NCBI RefSeq assembly: GCF_017498525.1 | Contig: NZ_CP071796.1 | Span: 4,098,041 to 4,162,040 of the forward strand | Reading direction: 5' to 3' | Length of the DNA: 64,000 nucleotides | DNA from: Ottowia testudinis | GTDB lineage: Bacteria; Pseudomonadota; Gammaproteobacteria; Burkholderiales; Burkholderiaceae_C | Shown: in pieces, positions 8,845 to 52,135 of the stretch | How positions within the stretch are numbered: the stretch's first letter is position 1 | Layout: each line of letters begins with the position of its first letter | The notes under the pieces: model-generated | The model's database searches: none | Seen by the model: the letters and a program-made list of their open reading frames with translations, nothing else | Told to the model about the DNA's origin: nothing | Made by a program: the position numbers and the translations under genes

Positions 8845-9010
8845 GGTGTCAGCCCCCGCGTGCCGGGGGGTGAAGGGGAAAGACACACGACGACGCAGGG
8901 CGCGGCACGGGCATGTTTGGCATGCTAACCGGAAAGCCTTACATCGCTTACATCAACGAACGGCCATCCGCATCCACCGAAAGATGGATGTGCCGGCGAT
9001 TGCTTCAGCG

Positions 9011-15645: not shown

Positions 15646-17109
15646 TCAAAAGCCCTTCGGTGCGCGGAGGTGGAAGTCGGTGGCCTGCTGCAACTGGTGG
15701 GCCACGTTCAGCAGCTTCGACTCTTGCAGGTAATTGCCGATCAGTTGCAGGCCCACCGGCATGCCGTGCGCGCCAAAGCCCGCCGGCACGCTCATGGCGG
15801 GCAGGCCGGCGAGCGAGGCCGACAGCGTGTAGATGTCGGCCAGGTAGTCGGCCAGCGGATCGTCGGCACATTCGCCGATGCAGCGCGCCACCGTAGGCGC
15901 CACGGGGCCGGCGATGACGTCGCATTGCTGAAAGGCGCGCTGCAAGTCGTCGGCGATCATGCGGCGCACCTTTTGTGCCTGCAGGTAATAGGCGTCGTAG
16001 TAGCCGTGGCTGAGCACATAGGTGCCGGTCATGATGCGGCGCTTGACCTCGTCGCCGAAGCCTTCGCCACGGGTCTTCTTGTACATGTCCTCCAGGTCGG
16101 TGTAGTCCTTGGCGCGGTGGCCAAAGGTCACGCCGTCGAAGCGCGCCAGGTTGGAGCTGGCCTCGGCCGGGCTGAGGATGTAGTAGACGGGGATCGACAG
16201 CTCGGTGCGCGGCAGCGAAATCTCGACCAGCCGGGCGCCAAGCTTTTGCAGCTCGGCCAGCGCGGCATCGACGGCGGCGCGCACATCGGGCGCCAAGCCA
16301 TCACTGATGAACTCTTTCGGCACGCCGATGCGCAGGCCGTCCAGGCGGTCGTTCAGCGCGCGGCTGAAGTCTTCTGCCGGCACGTCGAGCGAGGTGGAAT
16401 CGCGGTCCAGGTCTGGCCCGCACAGGGCGGACAGCAGCAGCGCGCAATCCTCGGCCGTGCGCGCCATCGGCCCGGCCTGATCGAGGCTGGAGGCGTAGGC
16501 GATCAGCCCAAAGCGGCTGGCGCGGCCATAGGTGGGCTTGATACCCGTCAGGTTGCAGAAGCTCGACGGCTGGCGGATCGAGCCGCCGGTGTCGGTGCCG
16601 GTGGCCGCCGGTGTCAGCCGCGCGGCCAGCGCCGCCGCGCTGCCGCCCGACGAGCCGCCGGGCACGCGCGTGGTGTCCCAGGGGTTGCGCACCTGTCCGT
16701 AGGCCGAGGTCTCGTTGGCCGAGCCCATGGCGAACTCGTCGCAGTTGAGCTTTCCGAGGCAAACCATACCCGAGTCGCTGAGTTTTCTCGTCACCGTGCT
16801 CTCGAAAGGCGAGCGATAGCCCTGGAGCATCCGGGAACCGGCGGTGGTCGAGAAGTCGGCGGTGACGAACACGTCCTTGTGCGCGACGGGCACACCCAGC
16901 AGCGGCGACGCATCGCCCCGCGCCAGCCGCGCATCGGCGGCGCGGGCCTGTGCCAGGGTCACGGCTTCGTCCTGCGCCAGAAAGGCGCCCAGCGAAGCGT
17001 GTTCCTTGGCACGCGCCAGAAAGTGATGGGCGGCCTCGACCGCCGAGACCTCGCGCGCCTTCAGCTTGGTGGCGAGCTGCGCCACCGTCAGATCATGCAA
17101 ATCGCTCAT
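15646..17109 (-). CDS. gatA: Glutamyl-tRNA(Gln) amidotransferase subunit A
   Basis: Amidase signature [10 protein letters not shown]. Overlaps gatC by 4 bp. Confidence 0.95.
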
Positions 17110-22707: not shown

Positions 22708-22795
22708 TTCTGCATGCAATCCATTTTCCCTATGATTGATGCAGCGGCCGTACCAACGGCCTTGTCAGCGTCATCACCCCCAAGGAGCCAAGCCC

Positions 22796-24334
22796 ATGAG
22801 CGACGACACCAAGAAATGCCCCGTGACCCACTTGACCACCGACTTCGGTGCGCCGGTGTCCACCAACCGCAACAGCCTCACCGCCGGCCCGCGCGGCCCG
22901 CTGCTGGCGCAGGACGTGTGGCTGAACGAGAAGCTGGCCAACTTCGTGCGCGAGGTGATCCCCGAGCGGCGCATGCACGCCAAGGGCTCGGGCGCCTTCG
23001 GCACCTTCACCGTCACGCGCGACATCACCAAGTACACGCGCGCCAAGATCTTCAGCCAAGTCGGCAAGAAGACGGAGATGTTCGCCCGCTTCACCACGGT
23101 GGCCGGTGAGCGCGGCGCGGCCGATGCCGAGCGCGACATCCGCGGCTTTGCCCTCAAGTTCTACACCGAAGAAGGCAACTGGGACATGGTGGGCAACAAC
23201 ACGCCCGTGTTCTTCATCCGCGACCCACGCCAGTTCCCCGACCTGAACAAGGCCGTCAAGCGCGACCCCAAGACCAACATGCGCAGCAAGCGCAACAACT
23301 GGGACTGGTGGACGCTCAACCCCGAGGCGCTGCACCAGGTCACCATCGTCATGAGCGACCGCGGCATCCCCAAGAGCTACCGCCACATGCACGGCTTCAG
23401 CTCTCATACTTATAGCTTCTGGAACAAGGATGGCGAGCGCTTCTGGGTCAAGATGCACTTCCGCACGCAGCAGGGCATCGAGAACCTGAGCAACGCCGAA
23501 GCCGAAGCCGTGGTCGCCAAGGACCGCGAGAGCAACCAGAAGGACTTGTTCGAATCCATTGAGAAAGGCGACTTCCCCAAGTGGAAGATGTACATCCAGG
23601 TCATGCCCGAGATGGACGCTGAGAAGTACCGCCTGCACCCGTTCGATCTGACCAAGGTCTGGTACAAGGGCGACTACCCGCTGATCGAGGTCGGCGAGTT
23701 CGAACTGAACAAGAATCCCGAGAACTTCTTTGCCGACGTTGAGCAGGTGGCGTTCGCGCCCGGCAACCTGGTGCCCGGCATTGGCGCCAGCCCCGACCGC
23801 ATGCTGCAATCGCGCCTGTTCAACTACGCCGACGCGCAGCGCTACCGCTTGGGCACCAACTACCAGCAGATTCCCGTCAACCAGGCGCGCTGTCCCGTCA
23901 ACAGCAACCACCGCGACGGCATCGGCCGCGTGGACGGCAACTACGGCGGCCTGCCGCACTACGAGCCCAACAGCTTCGGCCAGTGGCAGGCGCAGCCCGA
24001 GTTCATGGAGCCGCCGCTCAAGCTCACCGGCGACGCCGCGCACTGGAGCTTTCACGAAGACGACAGCAACTACTTCGAGCAACCCGGCAAGCTGTTCCGC
24101 CTGATGACGCCCGCGCAGCAGCAGGCCCTGTTCGACAACACCGCCACCGACATGAACGCGGACGGCACCACGCCCGAGTTCGTCAAGTTCCGCCACATCC
24201 GCAACTGCCACGCCGCCGACCCGGCGTATGGCGCGGGCGTGGCCAAGGCGCTGGGCATTGATCTGCAAAAGGCGCTGGCCTCGCAGAAGGACGACCCGAT
24301 GTACGGCAACCCGCTGGTGTCGCTGCCGGTGTAA
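22796..24334 (+). CDS. katA: Monofunctional haem catalase
   Basis: Shine-Dalgarno AAGGAG. Catalase motifs RERIPERVVHAKG-like ([13 protein letters not shown]) and the haem-ligand region. Confidence 0.95.
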
Positions 24335-24337
24335 ACA

Positions 24338-24408
24338 CCGTAGGGTGAGTGCTTGCACCCACGCGCGACAGCCAGTCCCCGCGTGGGTGCAAAGCACCCA
24401 CCCTACGG
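24338..24408. terminator. Family D long palindrome D1 (28-bp stem CCGTAGGGTGAGTGCTTGCACCCACGCG / complement)
   Basis: Near-perfect hairpin 4 bp after the katA stop. It lies between the convergent katA and giant ATPase genes and is a likely bidirectional terminator. No U-tract follows. Confidence 0.5.
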
Positions 24409-24416
24409 GGATGAAA

Positions 24417-24472
24417 TGGACTGCTGGCGCTTGTCCAGCAAGCGCCAGTAGCTATTCAAATAATAGCAACCA
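24417..24472. repeat. Family A repeat (GGACTGCTGGCGCTTGTCCAGCAAGCGCCAGTAGCT + ATTCAAATAATAGCAACCA)
   Basis: Immediately downstream of the giant ATPase stop. Confidence 0.75.
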
Positions 24473-24487
24473 TGCGTATGGCCCGTT

Positions 24488-27400
24488 TCACGGCCGCTTG
24501 CGCGCCTCCAGCTGCTCGAACTCCGCCTCCAGCCGCTGCACCTGCTGGTGCAGTTGCGCGTCTTCGCCCACGCGGGTTTCGATGGCGCGCACCAGGGGCA
24601 GGATGAGCTGGCGGTAGGTGACGGACAGCGACAGCAGCGCATCCACCATGCTTTGCTCCTTGGCGCGGTCGCTGTGCTGGTGCAGGGTCTGGGTGCTGGC
24701 TTGCAGGGCGCGCAGGGCGGCGGCGCTGGCGTCCAGGCTGGCGCGCAAATCGGTTTGGGCCTGGGTGTTGCCGTCTTGCAGGTGGCGCGCCAGCTCGGCC
24801 AGGGCGGCGAGCGACGGGGCCAGTTGCGCCTCCAGCTGCGCCAGCCGCTCCTGGCCGCCGGCCTGCTGGCGTGCCAGCACGGCCAGCGGACTGGCCAGGC
24901 GCACGCCCAGTTGGTCGAAGGCAGCGCTGGCCTGGCTGACCAGGTCGGCGGGCTTGAGGGCGTCGACGCTACGCGCGATGTCGAGCAGGCCGCTGGTCAC
25001 GCGCAGGGCCGGGTCGTCTTCGGCGCCGCCGAGCTTTTTCAGCCGCTGGTAGTCGCCCTGAATCTGCTGCCAGCGCGCGGCCTCGTCGGCGCTGGGCTGG
25101 CCGATGAGGTGCGCGAGTTGCAGCAGGTTTTCTTCGGCGCCGGTGGTCAGCGTCTGCGCCTCGCCGCGGTAGTGGTCGCGCAGCAGCGCGTTCATTTCGG
25201 GCGCGGTCATCAGCGGCGTGATCTGCGGCGCCAGCCGCGCCATGTTGCGGTAGCTGCCTTGCAGCTTGAAGGGCGGCGCCTGGCGGTAGCGGTCGTCCTG
25301 CGCGGCCGACTGGATGTAGGCCAGGTTCACTTTCAATAGCACGTCGCGCGCTTGCATCAAGCGCTGGAGCAGGTTTTTGATCTCCTCCAGCTCCACCGTG
25401 CTGTAGGGGTGCGCGAGTTGCGCGGGATCGATCGGCTCGCCTTGCGCCAGGCGCACCAGCAGTTGCACGTCTTTCGCCTCGCGCGCGGCCAGCGGCAGGG
25501 TGACGGGGTTGGCCGTCAGGCTGTTTTCGATGTACGACAGCGCAAACACCGCCTCGCGGCCGGAGAGAACGTCGCCCAGGTTGTAGATGTCGGCGCGGTT
25601 GGCCAGCATGTCGGGGATGCGGAAGGCCTCGCCCGATTCGGTGTAGGGGTTGCCGGCCATCACCACGGCAAAGCGCTTGCCGCGCAGGTCCCAGGTGCGC
25701 GCTTGGCCGCCCCACACGCCTTCGATGCGGCGCGTGCCGTCGGCCAGGGCGATGAACTTCTGCAAAAACTCGGGGTGCGTGTGCTGGATGTCGTCCACAT
25801 ACAGCATCACGTTGCTGCCCATCGCTAGCCCTAAGTTGAGCTTTTCCAGCTCCAGCCGCGCGGCGCTGTTGGGCGCGGTGGCGGGGTCGATGCTGGTCAC
25901 CGCGTGGCCCAACGCCGGGCCGTTGATGCGCACGAACACCAGGCCCAGCCGGTCGGCGATGTATTCCATCAGCGTGGTCTTGCCGTAGCCGGGCGGCGAG
26001 ATGAGCAGCAGCAGGCCCGAGCGGTCGGCGCGCCCGGCCTCGCCCGCGGCGCCGATCTGCTTGGCCAGGTTGGCGCCGATCAGCGGCAAATACACCTCAT
26101 CGATCAGCCGGTTGCGCACAAAGCCGGCCATGGGCTTGGCCTGGAACTGCGCCAGCTGCAGGCGCTCGCGCTCGGCGGCCAGCAGGTCGTGGCGCAGCGC
26201 TTGCAGCGCCTGCATGCCGGGCAGCGCGTGGGCGCGGTGGTGGCGCACGCGGCGCCAGAAGTCGTTCAAGTCCAGCGCCAGCATGCCCTCGGCAATGCGC
26301 GGGTGCTCGCTGCGCAGGCCGTGCACCTGCGCTTGCAGCGGCGCGTTGACGCGCTGGCGCGGCGCGTCGACGGCCAGTTGCGTGGCGGCGTCGTCGGTGC
26401 TGGCGCGCCACAGGGCGGCGTCATCACCTTGCTGCGACAGCACAAAGGCCAGCACCCATTGGCGCGCCAGGCGCCAGCGCTCCAGCGGGTCGGCGGCGGC
26501 CATGTCGCGCTGCCAGGCGGCGCGCTGGCCGCCCTGGTCGAGCGCGCGCTCCAGCGCGGCGGCCAGGTCTTGGCCGGCGGCGCTGATGACCCATTGCATC
26601 GGCGTGCTGGCCAGTTGCTCGGGCGCGGCGCTTTGGCCTTCCAGCGCGGCCAGCTCGCGCACCAGGTAGGCGGCGGCTTCCTGGCACAGGGTGTCGCGGG
26701 CCTCGTCGATCGCTACGCTTTCAATAGCTGGTTGCGCAAGCCACTCGTGGACAAAGGCCGGATTGGATTCAAAAAACGCCGTCAGCAGCGTGGCGGCTTC
26801 GCCCTCCAGCACGCGGCGCGGCGCGTCTTGCGCGAACAGCTCGGCCATCTGGCGCGCAGCGCGGGAGCGGCGCGCCAGCGACTGGCGCTGCTCGTCGCGC
26901 AGGCCGTTGTGCCAAGCCAGCAACGCCAGCGCGCGGGCTGCGGGGCCGTACACCAGCAGGCCGGCGGCCGCCTGCAAGGGTGCCAGCGCACGCACGATGG
27001 CCAGCGCGTCGTCGTCGTGAATGCCGCGCTGGTAGCCCTCCTGATATCGCGCGGCGGCAAAGCGGCGCAGCGGCTCCAGCAGCGCGGGCGGGGGCGGCTC
27101 GCCGGCGGGCCATTCGGCCAGCTGCGCCAGCAGCGCGGGCCAGCCGGGTTCGGCGCCGGCTTGCAGCGCGTCGAGCCACTCGGCGGCCAGGTATTCGGCG
27201 CGCGCCAGTTGCGGCGTTTCGGACACCAGGGTTTGCTGCCAGTACGGGCGCAGCGCCTGAAGCCGCGCATCGCTCACGGGCGCCACGTAGTCGGTGCCGG
27301 TGATCTGCCAGGCCAGGCCCTCTTGCCCATTGTCCGCGTGGGCCACCAGCGTCAGGTCGATCGGCTGGCGGTTGACGGTGAAGGCGTGCGCGCCCAGTTG

Positions 27401-30088
27401 AATGTCGCCCGCGCCGCCGGCGCTGGACAGATCGCGCTGGTCGCGTACGCTGCGCACGGCCTGCTCTTGCGCGGCCTTCAGGCGCGTGGCCAGGTCGTCG
27501 GCGGCCACGGCCGCGCCCAGGCGGCGCAGCTCGGCAATCTGCTCGCGCAGCTTGGCCAGCATGGGGTCAGCGGCGAAGTAGCTGTGCACCTGCGCCAGCT
27601 CGGCCATGCCGGCCACGCGGCGCGGCACGCCGTCGAGAATGCGGCCGGCCGCGTCTGCCAGCGCCTTGGCGCGGCGCTGGCGCGCATCGAGCAGGCTCTG
27701 GCGGCGCGCGGCCAGTGCCTCGTACACCGATTCGCGCTTGGCGGCGATGTCAGCGAGGAAGTCTTCCTGCTCGGCAAAGCGGGCTTCGATTTCTTCCAGC
27801 TGCGCCAGCAGGCGGGTCAGCGCCTCGTCGCACTTTTCGGGCGTGTCGGCCAGCTCCAGCGCGTTTTCGACCGCCTGGCCGAACAGCTTGAACTGCGCGC
27901 CAAATTCGGCCCGCTGCTCGGCCGCGCCCAGACTGCGGCGGCGCTGGCGCGCATCGGCACGCAGGCGGTTGATGTCGGCATACAGCAGCGCAATGCGGTC
28001 GAGGATGGCGGTGCGCTGCACGGCGTTGCCGCCAGGCAGGCTGCCGAGTTGCTCGCTCAATAGATCGAGGCCGGCGGCCTGCTCGTCCAAGGCTTTGAGC
28101 AACTCGCCGATGTGGGTGGCGGTGGCGGCGCCGGGCAGCTCGGCGGCGATCTGGGTCAGGGCTTTTTGCTGGCCGTCGAACGCCTTGTCGTCGCTTAAAA
28201 AAACCAGCGCGCGCTCGCCCACGCGCTGCTGCTCGGCGGCCAGCTGCTGCGCCATGCGGTCCACGCGGGGCAAATCGGCATAGCGCAGTTCGCGCAGCGT
28301 GTGCAGCTCGCCCTGGCGCTGGCGCAGGTGGTTGAGCGCGTGCACAAAGTCGGCCGGCGCGCGCCACATCTGCGCCGCCAGCTCGCCCAGCAGTTCGCGC
28401 TGCTGGCTCTCGGCGCGGTCGAAGGCGCGCGCGGTGTCGGCGCGGATGGTTTCGACTTTCTCGAACTCGGCCAGCGTGCCCTGCGCGCCCTGCTCGATGG
28501 CGGCCAGGTCTTGCGCGGCGTCTTGCGCCTCGGGCGCGTCGAGCCAGAAGTAAGCGTCGCGCGCGCGCTGGCACTGGCGGATCAGGTCGTCGTACGCGGT
28601 GCGCGTGGCCGCCTGCTCGCGCAGCGCGCGGGCGATGCCCATCAGGTCCGACACGCCGCGCACCAGATCGGGGTTGCCCACCCGGCCAAAAAAGCCGTGG
28701 CCCGCCGGTTGCGCCGCCGCGTATTCGTCGTGCGCGAACGGCGTTTGCCACAGCTGCATGGGGTGCAGCCGCGTGGCCTCGCCCGCCGTGGCCTGGAACA
28801 CCAGCATGCGGCCGTCGGCAAAGCGCGCGTAGCCATCGGCCAGGATGGGCGCGGCCAGGCGCTTGTCGATCAGGTTGTAGGTGAACAGGGCGTACACGCC
28901 CGCATCCGGCGCGCCGCCGCCCGCGGCGCCCGCCGGCGCATCGAGCGCGCCGTAGAAGATGTAGACCACGTCTTCGCCGTTGGGCGAACGCAGCATGCGC
29001 ACATAGCGCAGCGCGGCGGCCAGATCGGGCGCCAGGTCAAAGCGCTTGTGCTCGCCCGATTGCAGGTAGTAGCCGCCCGGAAAAATAATGCCGTGGTCTT
29101 CAGGCAGCTGCACGCACGAGGCGCCGATGGCGTCGATGCGCGCCACCTCGCGCGTGCGCTCGTTGAACACCAGATAGCGCACCGCCGTCTCGCGGTAGGG
29201 CTTGATGCGCAGCAAAATCAATCGCCCCAGCCGCGCGTAGGCGATCTCGGCGTCGCCCAGGGCCTGGTTGGCGTCATCCACCGGCTCGCTGTAGATGCCA
29301 AGACCGGTTTCGGTGTTGTTCTCCACCTTCACCGTCAGGTCGCCGCCGGTGGTTTCGACGAACACGGTGTCGAGGATATTGATGTGCGGGTGGCGTCCGC
29401 CCACGTGCTGCTCGCGCGTGACGGGCGTCCAGTCGAAATCGTGGCTGGCCGGCGGGGCGATGTCGCGCTCGCCCCGGTTGTCGACGTAGGTGGGCTCGCC
29501 ATTGGCCTCGATGCGCCAGCGGAACACGCGGATGTCGCTGCGCTGCGCGCCGATCTGGAACGCGGCCAGCAGCCAGTCGTTGGTCACGCGCAGCATTTGC
29601 AGCGTGGCCTGCTTGTAATAGGTGGTCAGCTCGCTGAAATCGGCCTTGAAGCGTGCATCGTCGAGGAAGCTGCCCGCCAGCGGCACCGGCAGCAGTTCAT
29701 CGGCAGCGCCCGCCTCGGCCTGCGCCTCGCCCGCCTCGTGGTGCACCAAGTCGTACAGCGCGAACACGTCGCCCACGGTGGTTTCGCGCCGCAGCCCCAG
29801 AAACACGTTGAAGCCCAGCAGCACGCGGTCGGCGCCGATGCGCACGATGTCGCGCGGCACGCAGGCGTGCTCGGTGTGCGCGCGGGTGCGCAGCAGCAGG
29901 CGCTGCTCCTGCTGGCCAAACGCATCGAGCCGCGCCGCGTTCAGCGCCTGCGCCTTGGCCAGCAGCGCATCGCCCTGCGCTTGCAGGCGCTTGCGGAGCA
30001 ACTCGTAGCTGCTGCTGGCGGCGACGGCGGAGTCGATGGCCGACGCGTCGGCATCCGGGGCGGGTGTGACATCAATGGCGTCGGGCAT
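24488..30088 (-). CDS. Giant multidomain AAA+ ATPase (about 1866 aa), mostly helical and low-complexity, with one MoxR/AAA_5-like ATPase module near residue 1400
   Basis: Walker A LLLISPPGYGKTTL, Walker B VMLYVDDIQH, sensor-1 VVMAGNP and arginine motif DMLANRADIY. The rest is Ala/Leu/Gln/Arg/Glu-rich, consistent with long coiled coils. The six-frame ORF begins at TTG 30097; the first ATG is 30088. Confidence 0.85.
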   Translation of the reverse strand: MPDAIDVTPAPDADASAIDSAVAASSSYELLRKRLQAQGDALLAKAQALNAARLDAFGQQEQRLLLRTRAHTEHACVPRDIVRIGADRVLLGFNVFLGLRRETTVGDVFALYDLVHHEAGEAQAEAGAADELLPVPLAGSFLDDARFKADFSELTTYYKQATLQMLRVTNDWLLAAFQIGAQRSDIRVFRWRIEANGEPTYVDNRGERDIAPPASHDFDWTPVTREQHVGGRHPHINILDTVFVETTGGDLTVKVENNTETGLGIYSEPVDDANQALGDAEIAYARLGRLILLRIKPYRETAVRYLVFNERTREVARIDAIGASCVQLPEDHGIIFPGGYYLQSGEHKRFDLAPDLAAALRYVRMLRSPNGEDVVYIFYGALDAPAGAAGGGAPDAGVYALFTYNLIDKRLAAPILADGYARFADGRMLVFQATAGEATRLHPMQLWQTPFAHDEYAAAQPAGHGFFGRVGNPDLVRGVSDLMGIARALREQAATRTAYDDLIRQCQRARDAYFWLDAPEAQDAAQDLAAIEQGAQGTLAEFEKVETIRADTARAFDRAESQQRELLGELAAQMWRAPADFVHALNHLRQRQGELHTLRELRYADLPRVDRMAQQLAAEQQRVGERALVFLSDDKAFDGQQKALTQIAAELPGAATATHIGELLKALDEQAAGLDLLSEQLGSLPGGNAVQRTAILDRIALLYADINRLRADARQRRRSLGAAEQRAEFGAQFKLFGQAVENALELADTPEKCDEALTRLLAQLEEIEARFAEQEDFLADIAAKRESVYEALAARRQSLLDARQRRAKALADAAGRILDGVPRRVAGMAELAQVHSYFAADPMLAKLREQIAELRRLGAAVAADDLATRLKAAQEQAVRSVRDQRDLSSAGGAGDIQLGAHAFTVNRQPIDLTLVAHADNGQEGLAWQITGTDYVAPVSDARLQALRPYWQQTLVSETPQLARAEYLAAEWLDALQAGAEPGWPALLAQLAEWPAGEPPPPALLEPLRRFAAARYQEGYQRGIHDDDALAIVRALAPLQAAAGLLVYGPAARALALLAWHNGLRDEQRQSLARRSRAARQMAELFAQDAPRRVLEGEAATLLTAFFESNPAFVHEWLAQPAIESVAIDEARDTLCQEAAAYLVRELAALEGQSAAPEQLASTPMQWVISAAGQDLAAALERALDQGGQRAAWQRDMAAADPLERWRLARQWVLAFVLSQQGDDAALWRASTDDAATQLAVDAPRQRVNAPLQAQVHGLRSEHPRIAEGMLALDLNDFWRRVRHHRAHALPGMQALQALRHDLLAAERERLQLAQFQAKPMAGFVRNRLIDEVYLPLIGANLAKQIGAAGEAGRADRSGLLLLISPPGYGKTTLMEYIADRLGLVFVRINGPALGHAVTSIDPATAPNSAARLELEKLNLGLAMGSNVMLYVDDIQHTHPEFLQKFIALADGTRRIEGVWGGQARTWDLRGKRFAVVMAGNPYTESGEAFRIPDMLANRADIYNLGDVLSGREAVFALSYIENSLTANPVTLPLAAREAKDVQLLVRLAQGEPIDPAQLAHPYSTVELEEIKNLLQRLMQARDVLLKVNLAYIQSAAQDDRYRQAPPFKLQGSYRNMARLAPQITPLMTAPEMNALLRDHYRGEAQTLTTGAEENLLQLAHLIGQPSADEAARWQQIQGDYQRLKKLGGAEDDPALRVTSGLLDIARSVDALKPADLVSQASAAFDQLGVRLASPLAVLARQQAGGQERLAQLEAQLAPSLAALAELARHLQDGNTQAQTDLRASLDASAAALRALQASTQTLHQHSDRAKEQSMVDALLSLSVTYRQLILPLVRAIETRVGEDAQLHQQVQRLEAEFEQLEARKRP

Positions 30089-30105
30089 GATTTTCAATCA
30101 AATGG

Positions 30106-30154
30106 GCTGCTTGTCCTTGAGCAATCAGCGCAAGCAGCTATCAATAAAATAGTG
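30106..30154. repeat. Family A repeat (GCTGCTTG-n-CAAGCAGCTATCAATAAAATAGTG)
   Basis: Between the giant ATPase start and the D2 palindrome. Confidence 0.6.
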
Positions 30155-30164
30155 AACGAGCCCT

Positions 30165-30235
30165 AGCGTAGGGCGGGCACTTGTGCCCGCGCGGGCGCTA
30201 CCGGTGCGCGCGGGCATGAATGCCCGCCCTACGCG
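30165..30235. repeat. Family D palindrome D2 (CGTAGGGCGGGCA ... TGCCCGCCCTACG with nested GCCCGCGCGGGC palindromes)
   Basis: A strong nested hairpin between the zinc-ribbon gene stop and the giant ATPase start. It shares the CGTAGGG/CCCTACG termini with D1. Confidence 0.6.
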
Positions 30236-30237
30236 GG

Positions 30238-30792
30238 TCATGGCCCCAGCGGCTCGGGCGAGCGCAGCAAGGCCAGCAGTTCATCGCGGTGCGGCTGCTC
30301 CGCCAGCCAATGCTGGATGCGCACGATCTCGTCGATGCAGGCGTCGCCGTGGCGCTGGCGCAAAGCCTGCATGCGGCTGGCCTGCAAACGCTCGGCTTGC
30401 AGGCGGCGCTGGCCGCCGTCGGACAGCAGCGCGTCCAGGTGCAACGCCAGGCCGCTTTGCATCAGCGCCGGCCATTCGCCGGCGTCCAGCCACAGGTGCT
30501 GGCAGGGCCCGCAACGGTCGATGCGGAACGCGGCGCCCGCGTCCACCGACAGGCGCTCCATCAGGCGCGCACAGGCGGGGCACGGGCGGGCGCGGGTGTG
30601 GTCGGCGGCGGTCGTCGCCAAGGGCGCGTGGGCATCGGACGCCGGCTGCGCGCCGCGCCAGCGCCGCCAGTCGTCCATCTTCAGCAGCACGGCGCCGCAG
30701 TCGGGGCAGGTGGCGGCGAACAAACCCGGCTCCAGCGTGGTGGGCTTGAGCAGGCTGTGGGCGGCGCAGTCGCAGTGGAGGTTGGCGGTCAT
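30238..30792 (-). CDS. Zinc-ribbon protein with four CxxC pairs (about 185 aa)
   Basis: CDC, CPDCGAV, CPACARL and CGPCQHL. An alternative upstream start is at 30837. Confidence 0.6.
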   Translation of the reverse strand: MTANLHCDCAAHSLLKPTTLEPGLFAATCPDCGAVLLKMDDWRRWRGAQPASDAHAPLATTAADHTRARPCPACARLMERLSVDAGAAFRIDRCGPCQHLWLDAGEWPALMQSGLALHLDALLSDGGQRRLQAERLQASRMQALRQRHGDACIDEIVRIQHWLAEQPHRDELLALLRSPEPLGP

Positions 30793-30873
30793 GGGCTGTC
30801 TTTCATGGCGCGGTGTGCGGGCGAGGCGATAACGCATCCGGCCCAGCCCACCGCCTATTTTTGGGTCAAATCA

Positions 30874-30925
30874 AACGCTTGCGCTTGCCAGTCAAGCGCA
30901 AGCAGCTATCAAAAACAAAGTGCCC
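30874..30925. repeat. Family A repeat (CGCTTGCGCTTGCCAGTCAAGCGCAAGCAGCTATCAAAAACAAAGTG)
   Basis: Between the flotillin stop and the zinc-ribbon gene. Confidence 0.75.
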
Positions 30926-30937
30926 AGCAAGAATGCA

Positions 30938-33064
30938 TCACTTGCGCAAGCCCCCCAGCAACGTTCGCAACGCCTCTTTCTCCGCGTCACTGCCCTGCGT
31001 GGCGATCTTGGTCAGCAGCGCCGTGATACCCAGGCTTTGCAACTCGCCCGACGACTGCCCGGCCGCGCCAAGCACCTGCTTCAGGTCTTCGACCACGTCG
31101 CGCTCGCCGCTGATCTGGTCCTTGAAGGCGACTTGCAGGGTCTGGCTCTTGCCTATCGTGGCGTCGATGCCCTTGCCCACCGACAGCGCGCGCACGAAGC
31201 TGTCGAAATATTCGCCCTGGCCGCCGACGATGTCGATCTTGGCGTTTTGCAGCGCGGTGCCCAGCACCTCGGCCTGCTCGCGGGCAATGGCCTGCTGCGC
31301 TTCGATGCCTTTGAGCGTCTCCAGGTGCGCGCGCTCCAGGCGCATGCGGTATTCCTCGTGCTGCCTGGTTTCAGCACTCATGGCTTTCATGGCTTCGAAC
31401 TTCTCTTTCAAACCGCGCGCCTCGGCGTTGAACTTGACGTCGATGTTGTGCGCCTCGGCATCGCCCTGCTTGGCCAGCGCTTCGGCGTCGACGGTGCGCA
31501 CCAGGGCTTCGGCCTGGCCGATCTTCTCCTTGCCCTCGGCCTCGGCGCCCATCTTGGCGCGCAGGCCCACGGCTTCGGCCTGCGCCTGCGCGGCGATGAC
31601 CTGGGCCTCGGCGCGGCCGACTTTCTCCTTGCCGGTGGCTTCGGCCTCCATCTGCGCCAGCTTGGCGCCGGCATCGGCCATTTGCACCTTGGCCTGCGCC
31701 AGGCCCGGCGCTGCGCTGATGGCTTCGACGCCCTCGGCTTCGCGCTTCTTGGCTTCGGCCTCTTTCTCGGCCACTTTCAGGCGCGCCTCGGCCAACACCT
31801 GCTCTTCGGATGCCTTGTGGCGCGCGCGGCGCTCCTGCGCTTCGGCGGCCTTGACCTCGGCCACCATTTTTTCCTCGGCCGCCGCCTGCGCGGTGATGAC
31901 CACCGCCTTGCCGGTGCGGTCGGCCTCGGCCACGGCGCGCACTTCCTTGATGGCTTCTTCCTGCTCGGCCACGGTGCGCTCGACCACGATGCGCTCGCGG
32001 ATCACGTCGGCGATCGCCTTCTTCTGCATCTCGACGGCCTTGTCGGCGTCGATGCGTTGCAGCGTCACTTCTTTCTCGCGCGCCACCACCTCCAGGTCCT
32101 TGGCGCGCGTCACGCGCTCTTGCTCGATGACGACGGCGCGCTTGCGGTTGTTCTCGGCCACCTCTTTCTCGCGCAGCACGTTTTCGTTCTGCACCGCCAC
32201 GGCCTGCTCGGCCTGCAGGCGGGCGAGTTCAGAGCGGGTGCGCTCTTCAGCCTGGATCTTGGCGGTCTCGGCCTCTTCGCGCGCTACCACGGTGGCGACT
32301 TCGCGCTTTTGGCGCGCGGTGGCGTCGGCCTGCTGGCGCTCCAGTTCCAATAGCGCCTCTTGCGTTTCGACGTTTTTCTTCTTGATCTGCATCTCTTCAT
32401 TGCGGCGCAGCTCGTTGGTGACCACGTGCTCCACGGCGGTCAGCTCGGTGATCTTCTTGATGCCCTGCGCGTCGAGGATGTTGTTGGTGTCCAGCCGCTC
32501 CAGCGGGGTTTGCTCCAGGTAGTCGATGGCGGCGTCTTCCAGCACGTAGCCCGACAGGTCGTCGCCGATCTGCTCGATGATCTTGTCGCGAAAGCGGTCG
32601 CGCGCCTGGTACAGCTCAACGAAGTCGAGCGACTTGCCCACCGTCTTGAGCGCCTCGGAGAACTTGGCCGAGAACAGGTCTTCCAGAATCTCGTGGTTGG
32701 ACGCGCGCTCGCAGCCGATGCCCTGGGCCACGCGCAGCACGTCTTCGGCGGTCTGGTTCACGCGCACGAAGAACTTGACCTTGATGTCGGCGCGGATGTT
32801 GTCCTGGCAGATCAGGCCCTGGTTGCCCGAGCGGTCGATCTCGATCGTCTTGATCGAGATGTCCATCAGCTCGGCCTTGTGGATGATGGGGTAGACCATG
32901 CGCCCGGTGAAGGTCACCTCGGGCTCGGCGCGCAGCGTGTTGACGATGAGCGCGTTGCCCTGCTCCACCTTGCGGTAAAACTTGGCGAACAGCGCGAACG
33001 CGCCCAGGATGAAGAGCACGAGCACGCCAACGGCGATCAGGATGAGCATCAGGGATTCGGACAT
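30938..33064 (-). CDS. Flotillin-family SPFH/band-7 protein (YqiK/FloT-like), 708 aa
   Basis: N-terminal transmembrane segment and SPFH domain, then a very long Glu/Ala/Lys/Arg/Gln-rich flotillin-type coiled coil (EA repeats). Confidence 0.9.
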   Translation of the reverse strand: MSESLMLILIAVGVLVLFILGAFALFAKFYRKVEQGNALIVNTLRAEPEVTFTGRMVYPIIHKAELMDISIKTIEIDRSGNQGLICQDNIRADIKVKFFVRVNQTAEDVLRVAQGIGCERASNHEILEDLFSAKFSEALKTVGKSLDFVELYQARDRFRDKIIEQIGDDLSGYVLEDAAIDYLEQTPLERLDTNNILDAQGIKKITELTAVEHVVTNELRRNEEMQIKKKNVETQEALLELERQQADATARQKREVATVVAREEAETAKIQAEERTRSELARLQAEQAVAVQNENVLREKEVAENNRKRAVVIEQERVTRAKDLEVVAREKEVTLQRIDADKAVEMQKKAIADVIRERIVVERTVAEQEEAIKEVRAVAEADRTGKAVVITAQAAAEEKMVAEVKAAEAQERRARHKASEEQVLAEARLKVAEKEAEAKKREAEGVEAISAAPGLAQAKVQMADAGAKLAQMEAEATGKEKVGRAEAQVIAAQAQAEAVGLRAKMGAEAEGKEKIGQAEALVRTVDAEALAKQGDAEAHNIDVKFNAEARGLKEKFEAMKAMSAETRQHEEYRMRLERAHLETLKGIEAQQAIAREQAEVLGTALQNAKIDIVGGQGEYFDSFVRALSVGKGIDATIGKSQTLQVAFKDQISGERDVVEDLKQVLGAAGQSSGELQSLGITALLTKIATQGSDAEKEALRTLLGGLRK

Positions 33065-33123
33065 GGCTCTCTTTCGGTCAGATCAGGACGAGGGGAAAAG
33101 GGTTGTGAGGTTGGTTTTTTTGA

Positions 33124-33320
33124 ACAGCCTGAACTTCCGGACGCAGAGGACGCAGAGGTTTCGCAGAGGACGCAGAAGGAACAGCCAAAAAGGATTTTTT
33201 AGCTCTCAAATTCATAGCGCACTACGCGGATTGCACGTGGACAAGCGGCGGATTTCGCCTTGTTTTTGAATTTTTTGCGTCCTCTGCGTCATCTTTGCGT
33301 CCTTGGCATGAGGCTGTTTG
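33124..33320. repeat. Family C MITE-like element, copy C1: terminal inverted repeats of tandem GACGCAGAGG units around an AT-rich core
   Basis: Left arm AACAGCCTGAACTTCCGGACGCAGAGGACGCAGAGG...; right arm is its reverse complement ...GCGTCCTCTGCGTCATCTTTGCGTCCTTGGCATGAGGCTGTTTGG. Inside the operon, between the NfeD-like and flotillin genes. Confidence 0.7.
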
Positions 33321-33324
33321 GAAT

Positions 33325-33975
33325 TCATTCATCTATCGGCAACACATCGACCCGATAGCGCAGCGTCGCTGCGTCGTAATCGGTCACCAGCGCGCGGTCG
33401 CCGCGCTTGAAGGGGTTGGGGCTGGGCGCCCACACGCGGATGTTGATGCTGGCGCCGCGCTGGGCGACTTCGGCGCGGCCCTGGCGCTCGTCCACGGTGC
33501 CGGTGAGGATGCGGCACACCTGCCCCACCAGCGCGGCGTTGGTTTGCGCCGTGTGCGTCACGAACAGGCCGCGCAGCGGGCGCACCAGGCGCGCGGTGAC
33601 GATGATCGACAGCGCCGCCGCCAGCGCCAGCACCACGCCACCGGCCAGGGCGTGCAGCGGCGCGGTGGGCACCAGCGGCAGCACCAGCACGCTGGCCAGC
33701 GCGGTGAACAGCCAACCCACCAGCACCAGCAGGCTGATGGCAATCGAAAACGGCACGCCGTTCAGGCCCATGGCCACCACGTAGCTGGCCAGCGTGCCCA
33801 GATCCTCGGGGCTGGCGTCGGCGTGGGTGTCGATGTCGACGTCGATGCCGCTCGACTCAAAGTCGACCATGCCCAGCAGCGCCAGCAGCCAGTAGATCAA
33901 CACCACGCCCAGCAGCACGGTGTAGACCATCGTCGGCCAGGACGTGATCACGGTCAGCACGGAAGCGGCGGGCAT
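33325..33975 (-). CDS. NfeD/YqiJ-like membrane protein (flotillin-associated, C-terminal OB-fold)
   Basis: Multiple transmembrane helices, then a soluble C-terminal domain (VRPLRGLFVTHTAQTNAALVGQVCRILTGTVDERQGRAEV...). The pairing upstream of a flotillin gene is the classic yqiJ-yqiK arrangement. Confidence 0.7.
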   Translation of the reverse strand: MPAASVLTVITSWPTMVYTVLLGVVLIYWLLALLGMVDFESSGIDVDIDTHADASPEDLGTLASYVVAMGLNGVPFSIAISLLVLVGWLFTALASVLVLPLVPTAPLHALAGGVVLALAAALSIIVTARLVRPLRGLFVTHTAQTNAALVGQVCRILTGTVDERQGRAEVAQRGASINIRVWAPSPNPFKRGDRALVTDYDAATLRYRVDVLPIDE

Positions 33976-34007
33976 GGTTCTGGTTCCCTCTCGATGAATG
34001 ATGATGC

Positions 34008-34102
34008 TTTTATTTTTATAGCTGCTGGCGCTTTCCAGTCTTCGTTTTCAAATCATTTTCCTCTGAAACTGGCTCCCGACAAGCGCAAGCAGCTATGTTT
34101 TT
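34008..34102. repeat. Family A repeat with enlarged loop (ATAGCTGCTGGCGCTTTCCAGTC ...45 bp... GACAAGCGCAAGCAGCTATG)
   Basis: The two arms match the family A half-sites but are separated by an AT-rich 45-bp insert. The right arm overlaps the stop of the 34093-34449 ORF. Confidence 0.55.
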
Positions 34103-34449
34103 TGCTTCAGCTTGCCGCGCCGGGGCGCCTGGGCAAAGCCGATCAACTCGCGCGTGGCCGCTTCCTTGATGGCCAGGCGGTCGTCCGCGGGCAGCCCATA
34201 ACGGTTCGCCAGCACATCGTAATCATCGCCGCTCAAGGTGACCGTGAGGCGCGGGCGCTTGGGCCGCTCGGCCGCCACGGGCAGGCCGAGCAGCAGGCGG
34301 ATCTGCGTGGAGGTGGACACGTTGGCTTCGAACGCGGCCACGCGCACCGCCTCCATCACCGCCTCTTCCACGTCGAACGCCACCTGCACGGCGCGCAGCG
34401 CGCTGTCCGAGCCCTGCCAGCGCGCCGGCTTGGCGGGCAAGGGGCTCAT
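34093..34449 (-). CDS. Hypothetical protein (118 aa), translationally coupled to the upstream PspA-family gene
   Basis: Its ATG overlaps the stop of the 34446-35180 gene (ATGA). No recognised domain. Confidence 0.5.
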   Translation of the reverse strand: MSPLPAKPARWQGSDSALRAVQVAFDVEEAVMEAVRVAAFEANVSTSTQIRLLLGLPVAAERPKRPRLTVTLSGDDYDVLANRYGLPADDRLAIKEAATRELIGFAQAPRRGKLKQKT

Positions 34450-35180
34450 GCGGCGTCCGGTTTGGGGGCGGGCAGCGCGGGCGCGGCGGCGGTCTGGCGG
34501 GCACGGATGCGCGCCATCACCTCGGCGGCGCGCACCTTGGGGTTGTCGCCAATGCCGGCCTCGGCCAGCTTGCGCTCCAGCGCGCGGTGGCCGAATTCGG
34601 CGTCCAACTCGTCGGCGGCGGCCATGCGGTCGGCCAGGTCGTTGTGGCGCTGCTTGATGCGCTCCAGCGACTGGCGCGCCGTCACCAACTGCGAGCCGCT
34701 GGCGCCCATGCTGTCGGCAATTTTCTGCGTGGCGCGGTACACGCTTTCGGTGGTCTTGGCGATGCCGATCTCGCGCTCGTGCTCGCGCACGCGGGCTTCG
34801 GCGGCGCGGATCAGGTCTTTCAACCGGCCCACTTGCAGCGCGTAGGCGGCGTGCGCCTGGGTCTGCTCGGCCAGCTCGGTTTCGAGCGCGGCCACGCGCT
34901 CGGCCACTTCCAGCGCCAGCGGCTCGTTGGCCTTGTCCAGCGCCTGCACGGCCAGGTCTTCGTGGCGGCGGATGTCGCCCTGGATGCGTTCGATCTCGCG
35001 CGCGCTCTGCTTTTCCTTGGCCATCACGCCGGTGAGTTCGGTCTTAGCCTCGTTCACGCTGGCCTTGGCGTCGATGATTTCCTGCTCGTAGATGCGGGTG
35101 GCGTTGGCATCCACCAGGCTCTGGCCCAGTTCGCGCGTGCTGCCGCGCAGCAGGGTGACGAGTTTCTTGATGACGGACAT
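34446..35180 (-). CDS. PspA/IM30 (Vipp1/ESCRT-III-like) family protein, YjfJ-like
   Basis: MSVIKKLVTLLRGSTRELGQSLVDANATRIYEQEIIDAKASVNEAKTELTGVMAKEKQ...; the N-terminal amphipathic helix plus long coiled coil is typical of PspA/IM30. Confidence 0.85.
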   Translation of the reverse strand: MSVIKKLVTLLRGSTRELGQSLVDANATRIYEQEIIDAKASVNEAKTELTGVMAKEKQSAREIERIQGDIRRHEDLAVQALDKANEPLALEVAERVAALETELAEQTQAHAAYALQVGRLKDLIRAAEARVREHEREIGIAKTTESVYRATQKIADSMGASGSQLVTARQSLERIKQRHNDLADRMAAADELDAEFGHRALERKLAEAGIGDNPKVRAAEVMARIRARQTAAAPALPAPKPDAA

Positions 35181-35212
35181 GGCGGTTCTCCTTGTCGGTT
35201 GAATGGGGGCGG

Positions 35213-35632
35213 TTACTTCAGGAATTCGGCCAGCGCATCGAGCGCATCGAGCGCGTTGTCGGACAGCACGGCCACCTCATGCGCCACGTCTTCGGGCCGC
35301 GCGCCGCGCGCCAGCGCGCCGGTCAGCACGTAGCGCCCGCCTATGCGGCCAAACGACGACAGCGGCACCGAGGGATTCAAATCGAGCATGGCTTCGAGCA
35401 GCTCGACGTGGCGCTCGGGCCGCACGTCGGCCTCGGTCCACAGGTAGCACAGGCAGATGATTTGCGTGTCGGAGCAGGTGACGAAGATCGGCAGCTCGTC
35501 GCGCCCTTCGATGCTGACTTGCAGCACCGGCACATCGCCCGTGATGGGCTGCAACTGCACCTGGGCGCCGCCCATCAGCGCAGCAGTAAGCGTGTCGAGC
35601 TGGCGCAGTTGCTGCAACAAGGTGGCCGGCAT
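35213..35632 (-). CDS. Hypothetical protein upstream of the PspA-family gene (YjfI-like position), about 139 aa
   Basis: GGAGGG lies 7 nt before the ATG. The conserved pairing with a PspA-family gene resembles E. coli yjfI-yjfJ. The family assignment is tentative. Confidence 0.5.
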   Translation of the reverse strand: MPATLLQQLRQLDTLTAALMGGAQVQLQPITGDVPVLQVSIEGRDELPIFVTCSDTQIICLCYLWTEADVRPERHVELLEAMLDLNPSVPLSSFGRIGGRYVLTGALARGARPEDVAHEVAVLSDNALDALDALAEFLK

Positions 35633-35737
35633 GTCGAATCCCTCCATCGTTGGTGGCCGCACCGGGTGATGCGGTGTCGCCATATTATGTCCAACGACAT
35701 GATATGTCAAACGATTTTGTTCGGCGTCTGGTGGCAA

Positions 35738-35898
35738 AAACAGCCGGACGCGAAGGACGCGAAAAAGACAAAAATCTTCTGGCCTATGGGGTCGTTGGCC
35801 GCGCCATCACGAACGATGTGTCACGAGCCGAACAAGAATTTTTTGAATTCTTTCGCGTCTTTCGCGCAATCTTCGCGCCCTTCGCGTAAGGGCTGTTT
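35738..35898. repeat. Family C MITE-like element, copy C2 (arms built from GACGCGAAGG / CGCGAA units)
   Basis: Left arm AAACAGCCGGACGCGAAGGACGCGAAAAAGAC; right arm is the reverse complement of AAACAGCCCTTACGCGAAGGGCGCGAAGATTGCGCGAAAGACGCGAAAG. Its end includes the RND stop codon. Confidence 0.7.
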
Positions 35899-41828: not shown

Positions 41829-41872
41829 CCGGACAAAATGGCGGCGGCACCAGCCAATGCCTTCTCAGCGTG

Positions 41873-41980
41873 ATCCGAAGGCCGCGGAGCAGGCCACACC
41901 GGAACGCCGTGGTCGGGGTTCCCCCGACCACCAGCGTTGTCCCCCTCAGGGGGAAGGCGCGTCAGCGCCACAGGGGGAGT
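41873..41980 (+). repeat. Family B multi-hairpin repeat, copy B2, abutting tRNA-Arg
   Basis: GATCCGAAGGCCGCGGAGCAGGCCACACCGGAACGCCGTGGTCGGGGTTCCCCCGACCACCAGCGTTGTCCCCCTCAGGGGGAAGGCGCGTCAGCGCCACAGGGGGAG. Relative to B1 the central stem carries compensatory C-G to T-A changes. Confidence 0.8.
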
Positions 41981-41986
41981 GTTGTT

Positions 41987-42062
41987 TGGCGCGGCTGGCG
42001 GGGATCGAACCCACGACCCTCGGCTTCGGAGGCCGATACTCTATCCACTGAGCTACAGCCGC
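41987..42062 (-). tRNA. tRNA-Arg (anticodon CCG), CCA encoded
   Basis: Cloverleaf folded by hand: acceptor GCGGCTG/CAGCCGC, D-arm GCTC-AGTGGATA-GAGT, anticodon stem TCGGC/GCCGA with loop CTCCGAA (anticodon CCG), T-arm GTGGG-TTCGATC-CCCGC, then 3' GCCA. Confidence 0.9.
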
Positions 42063-42097: not shown

Positions 42098-42283
42098 AAA
42101 CAGCAACAGCCGGACGCGAAGGGCGAAAAAGTTACGCGAAGAACGCGAAAGATTCAAAAAGGTTTTGTTCGGGGAGTGAAGTAGCGCCCGTGCGGGCTCA
42201 TCGATCACGGGCACGCACTGCAAATTTTGTCTTTTTTGCGTCGTTCGCGAATCCTTCGCGCCCTTCGCTTCGGGCTGTTGGAG
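42098..42283. repeat. Family C MITE-like element, copy C3
   Basis: Left arm CAACAGCCGGACGCGAAGGGCGAAAAAGTTACGCGAAGAACGCGAAAG; right arm is the reverse complement of CAACAGCCCGAAGCGAAGGGCGCGAAGGATTCGCGAACGACGCAAAAAAG. There is a central GC hairpin. Confidence 0.7.
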
Positions 42284-52023: not shown

Positions 52024-52130
52024 AAACCTTTGAACGCAAAGTGCGCAGAGATTTCGCAAAAGCCGCAGAAGTTTTTTCTGGTTTTCTTTTGCGTCTTTTG
52101 CGTGATCTTTGCGACCTTTGCGTTCAAGAA
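52024..52130. repeat. Family C element, copy C4 (arms built from ACGCAAAG / CGCAGA units)
   Basis: TTTGAACGCAAAGTGCGCAGAGATTTCGCAAAAGCCGCAGAAG ... CTTTTGCGTCTTTTGCGTGATCTTTGCGACCTTTGCGTTCAAG; the arms are inverted repeats. Confidence 0.6.
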
Positions 52131-52135
52131 ACATC

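Follow-up and report, generated by a model that had tools for sequence, protein, structure and literature searches.

Within a 64-kb stretch of the genome of Ottowia testudinis (hereafter the window; 67.6% GC), a gene for a giant ATPase of 1866 amino acids (24488–30088, − strand) is flanked by two palindromes, D1 (24338–24408) and D2 (30165–30235), each lying next to a copy of a second repeat, family A. Very probably, D1 and D2 are hairpin-forming doublets of REPs (repetitive extragenic palindromes), i.e., REPINs, while family A is a separate repeat, the ATPase gene was inherited vertically, and the layout around it arose from independent insertions. Under this explanation, each palindrome would be a pair of inverted, GTAG-headed REPs folding into one long hairpin, drawn from a REP class made up of GTAGGG, an 8-bp stem, and a TT or TC loop, with two subfamilies represented by D1 and D2. 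REPs of this class would be non-autonomous, would depend for their spread on a REP-associated tyrosine transposase (RAYT), and would gather just past stop codons. The ATPase gene would have been passed on as the terminal gene of a PspA-type operon, and the D and A elements would have inserted separately, at different times, into two short spacers after stop codons: an old D2 and A on the upstream side, and a downstream D1-A-katA arrangement specific to this genome. Should the elements influence katA, the Zn-ribbon gene, or the ATPase gene through mRNA stability, termination, or translation, this would then be a by-product typical of REPs.

Structure of the two palindromes

Both palindromes lie where a first-pass annotation of the sequence had placed them, with the CGTAGGG/CCCTACG termini it had described, and these termini make up four of the five CGTAGGG sites of the window. 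D1 begins 4 nucleotides (nt) past the stop codon of the catalase gene katA (22736–24334, + strand; Pfam Catalase), which is convergent with the ATPase gene, and D2 adjoins the stop codon (30238–30240) of a Zn-ribbon protein gene (30238–30837, − strand; Pfam Zn_ribbon_TFIIB). The arms of D1 span 24339–24365 (+ strand; GTAGGGTGAGTGCTTGCACCCAC) and 24380–24407 (− strand; GTAGGGTGGGTGCTTTGCACCCAC) and are separated by 14 nt, and those of D2 span 30167–30193 (+ strand; GTAGGGCGGGCACTTGTGCCCGC) and 30207–30233 (− strand; GTAGGGCGGGCATTCATGCCCGC) and are separated by 13 nt. D1 had been described as having a perfect 28-bp stem, but its stem consists of a 17-nt arm with one mismatch and a perfect 13-nt arm, with a 1-nt bulge between them; the 28-nt arms of D2 are 89% complementary. 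The long hairpins are present in predicted folds, and the spacers that contain D1 and D2 fold far beyond shuffled sequences (z-scores of −7.7 to −10.1, at about −78 to −89 kcal/mol).

All four arms open with GTAGGG, of which the GTAG head lies outside the stem, and behind this head each arm forms a small hairpin of its own, e.g., GTAG-G-GCGGGCAC-TT-GTGCCCGC. The two stem-loops of D2 (GCGGGCAC-TT-GTGCCCGC and GCGGGCAT-TC-ATGCCCGC) have 8-bp stems, and those of D1 are equivalent, with one A·C mismatch or a 3-nt loop. Each D1 arm is one mismatch or one indel away from GTAGGGTGGGTGCTTGCACCCAC, for which we found 53 exact matches in metagenome contigs among the matches listed. In both palindromes the arm with the CTTG loop stands at the left (blastn-short), i.e., the two doublets have the same polarity.

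REP class and associated transposases in other genomes

We searched metagenome contigs with a degenerate pattern (GTAGGGYGRGYRCTTGYRCCCRC) written to fit the CTTG-loop arms of the two palindromes. At least 120 contigs contained a match. Among the matches listed, all three variable stem pairs were complementary in 142 of 154, and about one third of the 154 sat in head-to-head doublets. Also among the matches listed, 74 of 88 on contigs with at least 60% GC, of which about 80% is coding, fell outside crude gene calls, and ~65% of these 74 extragenic matches were within 100 nt of the 3′ end of a gene.

At least five of these metagenome contigs (L158, L190, L172, L174, and L186) carry a RAYT gene that has the same REPs on both sides, in inverted orientation. 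Similarity to E. coli RayT served as a lead only, and the five proteins were confirmed separately: they score 186–192 bits against NCBIfam NF047646 (cutoff, 80 bits), carry the Pfam domain Y1_Tnp, and match TnpArep (PDB 4ER8; E = 4e-44). The link to D2 is exact: upstream of the L158 RAYT lies GTAGGGCGGGCACTTGTGCCCGCGC, the left arm of D2, and downstream of it lies GTAGGGCGGGCATTCATGCCCGC, the right arm. Both D2 arms are identical over 23 of 23 positions to these RAYT-flanking REPs and to REPINs of contig L119, in which three tandem REPINs consist of exactly the two D2 arms. In one sample, a single REP variant occurred on 16 contigs, one of them carrying a RAYT (among the matches listed). Taken together, the anatomy of the palindromes, the distribution of the pattern, and the identity of RAYT-flanking REPs with the D2 arms suggest that D1 and D2 belong to a single RAYT-associated REP class, in which they represent two subfamilies.

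Long tandem REP arrays surround the RAYT in L158 (2000–3526 and 8019–8739) and L190 (10235–11114). Both contigs have ~50% GC, and their array REPs match the D2 arms of the Ottowia genome (68% GC) exactly; one REP sequence thus serves hosts of very different base composition.

Distribution of family A

With a nhmmer profile made from the family A copies of the window, the elements beside the ATPase gene mapped to about 24407–24474 and 30088–30160, in agreement with the first-pass annotation. Overall, the window holds ~16 strong copies in either orientation (~1 per 4 kb), which occupy roughly half of its 25 spacers of at least 40 nt. The consensus combines a GC-rich hairpin (GCTGCnnGCGCTTG...CAAGCGCnnGCAGC) with a following AT-rich mini-hairpin, and left arms are often decayed. 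Three consecutive spacers of the operon region (starting at 24407, 30088, and 30854) hold a copy, all on the + strand. The first (24407–24474; E = 2.7e-16), in the 153-nt convergent spacer between katA and the ATPase gene, has the hairpin CTGCTGGCGCTTG/CAAGCGCCAGTAG followed by AT-rich GCTATTCAAATAATAGC; the second (30088–30160; E = 9.7e-16, + strand only), directly upstream of the ATPase start in the 140-nt ATPase/Zn-ribbon spacer, has a decayed inner stem; and the third (30854–30928; E = 7.6e-19), in the 100-nt spacer between the Zn-ribbon gene and a gene for a 708-aa protein, contains the sole intrinsic-terminator-like element of the region (30904–30876, − strand).

Against ~16 copies in 64 kb, the profile found only eight matches in 1.69 Mb of related loci, which points to family A as an abundant, lineage-specific intergenic filler repeat. 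A search of the PLSDB plasmids gave no match to family A. At gathering thresholds, Rfam recovered one tRNA only from the whole window, and a permissive scan of 24300–24500 yielded only spurious matches of miRNA hairpins to D1, so that no known RNA family matches D or A. Covariation across 17 window copies did not exceed that of shuffles (68.6% of pairs paired vs. 66.9%), and we do not claim family A as a selected RNA structure.

Several further observations concern this family. A 75-nt stretch within the ATPase open reading frame (ORF; 26704–26778, − strand) matches the profile with E = 3e-7, and its translation, ...FFESNPAFVHEWLAQPAIESVAID..., belongs to a hypervariable protein linker. At the same position, the orthologue in the related locus L005 (about 13177) has still more A-like sequence, and the repeat may have inserted here in frame long ago. 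After the 708-aa gene, orthologous A-type hairpins of the window (30865–30909, − strand) and of the close relative L201 (7096–7139) have kept their flanks (ATAG... and ...GATTTGA), and two G-C to C-G swaps separate their stems with pairing intact. Flanks of the type ATAG...ATTTGAT were also considered as a possible marker for the A-like elements of relatives, but they are not general. D/A pairs lie at 24338–24474 and 30088–30235 in the window, at 939–1063 in L111, at 436–566 and 2463–2560 in L145, and at 8974–9212 in L166, and the junction GCAGCTATGATTTT[C/T]GTAGGG recurs at two different loci.

Different ages of the two flanks

We then compared the region with 80 ATPase-orthologue loci from species representatives in GTDB (L001–L080; 44–84% identity) and with the closest relatives, L201 and L202, whose ATPase shares 87% amino acid identity with that of the window. 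In nearly all of the 80 loci, the ATPase gene holds the same operon position, last in its cluster, and the closest relatives fall into one and the same ranking whether identity is taken for the ATPase or for the neighboring 708-aa protein. None of the 80 has katA downstream of the ATPase gene; they lack D1 as well, and no ATPase-flanking family A copy was detectable in them with the model.

The upstream flank has a longer history. In L201/L202, the operon is co-linear, including the ATPase gene and lacking the Zn-ribbon gene, and the 221-nt spacer upstream of the ATPase gene aligns over its full length with D2 and A of the window at ~75% identity. There, the GTAG heads of D2 are mutated (GTGGAG, ATCTAC), its stems are broken, and the A copy is more decayed. 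Downstream of the ATPase gene, L201/L202 carry a LysR gene, and by eye the spacer shows no D1, A, or katA. In L001 (84% identity), the Zn-ribbon gene is followed by a different REPIN, then by the D2 spacer with its ATPase-proximal arm (25/25), and then by a ParE toxin-antitoxin module; L005 has a D2-type singlet and extra ORFs upstream of the ATPase gene; in L004, a YhcG-like nuclease gene and nqrA-F/apbE separate the 708-aa and ATPase genes; and L002 and L062 have no element at this junction. D2 remnants are thus orthologous in L001, L005, and L201/L202. Since D2 and A are orthologous in L201/L202, where the downstream D1, A, and katA are lacking, the two sides differ in age: by this comparison, the upstream D2 and A predate the split from the 87% relatives, and the downstream D1-A-katA junction is particular to this genome.

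Just upstream of the ATPase gene, the Ottowia clade has a hotspot of insertion (L001, 9139–10000; L004, 1221–9880; L005, 8300–9930; and L061), and in O. massiliensis (L061) the ATPase gene is separate from the operon. In L001, a CRISPR array (15780–16130; repeat GTTTCAACCCACGCGCCTGCACGAGGCGCGAC, at least five copies) lies directly downstream of the ATPase gene, the place taken by katA in the window.

Mirror symmetry around the ATPase gene

The first-pass annotation had seen a mirror-symmetric D-A...A-D arrangement around the ATPase gene. This holds for the order of the elements but not for their orientation: both A copies lie on the + strand (54.9 and 53.1 bits, vs. 16 bits or nothing on the − strand), and both palindromes have their CTTG arm at the left. 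D1 borders its A copy on the 5′ side and D2 borders its own on the 3′ side, and the D-A junction sequences of the two spacers are unrelated; D-A is therefore no repeated composite unit, and each spacer consists of D, A, and a few further bases. As family A occupies about half of the spacers, genes with a copy on either side are to be expected, another example being the Zn-ribbon gene. The symmetry is coincidental.

Evidence against independent insertion and alternative explanations

Several observations weigh against independent REPIN insertions as the full explanation. First, the only two D doublets of the 64-kb window both flank the ATPase gene, an adjacency reached ~8% of the time when two elements are placed at random in the 25 spacers. 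Second, no RAYT was found in the window or in L001–L080; we infer its presence, current or past, in the Ottowia testudinis genome. Third, a few metagenome contigs of 66–69% GC also carry both A and D elements, and, with the window included, a D-type REP lies at most 40 nt from A in six of seven co-occurrences, possibly more than a shared preference for short spacers would give; this closeness could stem from that preference or from a target-site preference of REPINs. Finally, the D2 arms are 100% canonical in O. testudinis as against ~25% divergence in the 87% relative, which could mean selection by the host and argues for maintenance in O. testudinis, either by a REPIN-RAYT system or by the host.

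Selection by the host is central to the alternative in which the hairpins, REPIN-derived or not, are regulators, with D2 acting within the operon as an attenuator or mRNA-stability barrier, so that expression of the ATPase would be uncoupled from that of the upstream genes, and D1 with A acting as a bidirectional 3′-end element for the convergent katA and ATPase transcripts. REPs can protect upstream mRNA from 3′ exonucleases. Newbury and colleagues reportedly found in 1987 that REPs stabilize upstream mRNA, Espeli and colleagues are said to have described transcription attenuation by REPs in 2001, and Liang and colleagues are said to have reported in 2015 that REPs within 15 nt of a stop codon stall terminating ribosomes. 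Both palindromes lie within ~15 nt of a stop and thus fit the position linked to ribosome stalling: they begin 0–4 nt past the stop codon with very stable hairpins. D2 has moreover been kept at its junction in three or four related lineages, and both its arms are still canonical in O. testudinis. However, no U-tract follows D1 on either strand (GGGGATGAAA on +, GGTGTTTACA on −) or D2 on the − strand (GCTAGGGCTCG), and a terminator scan flagged neither palindrome, its only hit in the region being the family A copy at 30904–30876. The loss of GTAG heads and stem complementarity from D2 in L201/L202 speaks against the hairpin being under strong selection, no element stands at the junction in L002 and L062, and the spacer measures at most tens of bases in most relatives. 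On balance, we consider host-selected regulation by these hairpins rather unlikely as the primary explanation; it is compatible with REP biology, and side effects of the hairpins on expression are plausible.

Another possibility is that family A is the functional element, i.e., a structured intercistronic RNA or terminator module beside which REPINs merely insert. The three consecutive A-bearing spacers, in which the copies share their orientation relative to operon transcription, would fit such a role, as would the terminator-like copy, the pairing-preserving swaps and kept flanks of the orthologous copy after the 708-aa gene in L201, and the proximity of D to A in six of seven co-occurrences. 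These points are offset by the covariation result, the frequent decay of left arms, the mixed orientation of copies relative to flanking genes, and the lack of an Rfam match, and this explanation seems quite improbable. We see similarly little probability in a combined scenario in which D2 and A form an old REPIN-derived module that the ATPase gene has kept at its 5′ end since before O. testudinis diverged from its 87% relatives and that was co-opted either as a hairpin setting the ratio of ATPase to PspA-type proteins or as the seed of the insertion hotspot, with A perhaps an undescribed structured intercistronic element favored by REPINs. The seed option draws on the ParE module, the nqr operon, and the other genes found at the same junction in sister lineages.

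The first-pass annotation offered a reading in which the ATPase gene would have arrived as a cassette between inverted D-A composite repeats; the synteny refutes it, leaving it extremely improbable. The mirror-like order would suit it, as would the placement of both D elements of the window at this one gene and the variability of the upstream junction in the Ottowia clade (toxin-antitoxin genes in L001, nqr genes in L004, the ATPase gene apart in L061). However, nearly all of the 80 related loci carry the ATPase gene in its ancestral operon position, without D1, katA, or flanking A copies detectable with the model, and the gene is co-linear with the 708-aa and PspA genes in loci from Comamonadaceae, Rhodocyclales, and Cellvibrio. 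Of the repeats, the two A copies are direct rather than inverted, the D doublets share their polarity, and the D-A junctions differ. Only the ATPase gene lies between the repeats, with catalase and Zn-ribbon genes as neighbors, no transposase or integrase inside or beside it, and no RAYT. Finally, the upstream D2 and A are ancestral, with orthologues in the 87% relatives, whereas on the downstream side the D1-A-katA arrangement belongs to this genome alone. An integron attC origin was rejected, as inspection of the D termini showed no GTTRRRY/RYYYAAC cores and an integrase is absent.

Gene context and start codon of the ATPase

The ATPase protein (Pfam DUF3686, DUF7902, and AAA) is 100% identical over 1866 aa to a 'DNA repair ATPase' of Ottowia testudinis (Comamonadaceae). 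It closes a cluster on the − strand in the order DUF2170 (174 aa), PspA/IM30 (244 aa), a 118-aa protein, a 216-aa protein, the 708-aa repeat protein, the optional Zn-ribbon protein, and the ATPase, with the five upstream genes at 30938–35737 (Pfam assignments). The cluster (24488–35737, − strand), traced in L001–L080 and L201–L203, is found in Comamonadaceae, Rhodocyclales, and Cellvibrio; in its make-up it is similar to a PspA module of the YjfI/YjfJ type to which a huge ATPase has been added. The literature searched contained no mention of DUF3686. PADLOC, run on the seven operon proteins, returned only a weak LmuB-like coiled-coil match for the ATPase, and we rejected the operon as a known defense system. 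The 708-aa protein has no Pfam family; within its gene (31500–31927, − strand), internal repeats recur with a 99-nt period (31500–31580 and 31599–31679 are 73% identical, with weaker copies besides), so the protein is repetitive and probably coiled-coil.

The start of the ATPase gene had been noted as ambiguous. As described, the ORF opens at TTG 30097, directly preceded by an in-frame stop, the first ATG is at 30088, and no Shine-Dalgarno sequence is seen in CCCATTTGATTGAAAATC upstream of this ATG. The ambiguity does not stand: the orthologues in L001, L002, L005, and L019 begin at an ATG aligned with 30088, and the 1866-aa length of the NCBI protein corresponds to the same start. On this evidence, ATG 30088 is the start codon. 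Sixteen bases upstream of it (CAGCCCATTTGATTGA) are conserved in L201/L202, at a distance of 4 nt in the window and 7 nt in these relatives.

The window contains further repeats. An intergenic repeat of ~55 nt is dispersed over four sites (33264–33318, 35842–35896, 42225–42279, and 52078–52132), two of them in the operon region, and holds three or four TTTGCG(T/C)C-like units at ~10-nt spacing. A 73-nt sequence containing the palindrome CGTGGCCGGGGTTCCCCCGGCCACG occurs in two copies with 90% identity (294–366 and 41872–41944), each beside a family A copy, and one of them 46 nt from the window's only tRNA gene (41990–42062, − strand).

Implications and comparison with known repeat systems

These results remove a false lead, the giant ATPase not being a mobile cassette, and document GTAG-type REPINs in Ottowia (Comamonadaceae), with identical REP sequences serving RAYTs in genomes of 49% to 69% GC. 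For annotation, they identify two repeat families that would otherwise be taken for regulatory sites across the Ottowia testudinis genome. If D2 did modulate expression of the PspA-type operon, this would be one more case of REP exaptation, useful but unsurprising.

In E. coli, the malE-malF REP forms a hairpin in the intercistronic spacer just past the stop codon. D2 resembles such E. coli REPs and bacterial interspersed mosaic elements in being a hairpin directly after a stop codon within an operon. Unlike the D elements, the E. coli mosaic elements form clusters with IHF or gyrase sites, which were not seen here; D2 is moreover decayed in the nearest relatives. Family A is closer in style to the enterobacterial ERIC/IRU elements (enterobacterial repetitive intergenic consensus, or intergenic repeat units), the Correia elements of Neisseria, and the Rickettsia palindromic elements (RPE): a palindromic consensus of 60–80 nt, many copies in either orientation, short spacers, decay, and one possible in-frame copy within a gene (26704–26778). 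Unlike these, family A has no GTAG/CGTC tag, obvious terminal inverted repeats, or target duplications, and Rfam and plasmid searches gave no sequence similarity to described families.

The D elements share more with the GTAG-tagged REPs of Haemophilus parasuis and Pseudomonas putida (PMC3733652, PMC2817692), such as the H. parasuis REP GTAGGGTGGGTCTTGACCCACC in Table 1 of Nunvar 2010 (PMC2817692). Alike are a GTAG head outside the stem, a GC-rich stem of 6–9 bp, a TY-type loop of 2–4 nt, subfamilies with complementary stem changes, and a position downstream of ORFs, often abutting stops; what differs is the sequence and length of the D stem (8 bp, GCGGGCAC or GTGGGTGC). Of the surveys in PMC2817692 and PMC3733652, one has RAYT-associated REPs in a single betaproteobacterium and the other has GTAG repeats mainly in gammaproteobacteria; the text of neither mentions Comamonadaceae or Acidovorax.

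The arrangement in doublets matches the REPIN as defined in Pseudomonas fluorescens SBW25, i.e., two inverted REPs with a short spacer forming one long hairpin (PMC3116915). As in SBW25, the elements described here are extragenic, cognate REPs flank a RAYT (here in metagenome contigs), and copies persist for long at a locus. Differences from SBW25 include the REP sequence itself (in D, GTAGGG-CGGGCA/TGGGTG-CTTG...) and the host, here the betaproteobacterium Ottowia. A further difference is that the two D2 arms are dimorphic in their loop (CTTG vs. TTCA), as are the 5′ and 3′ REPs of the L158 RAYT unit.

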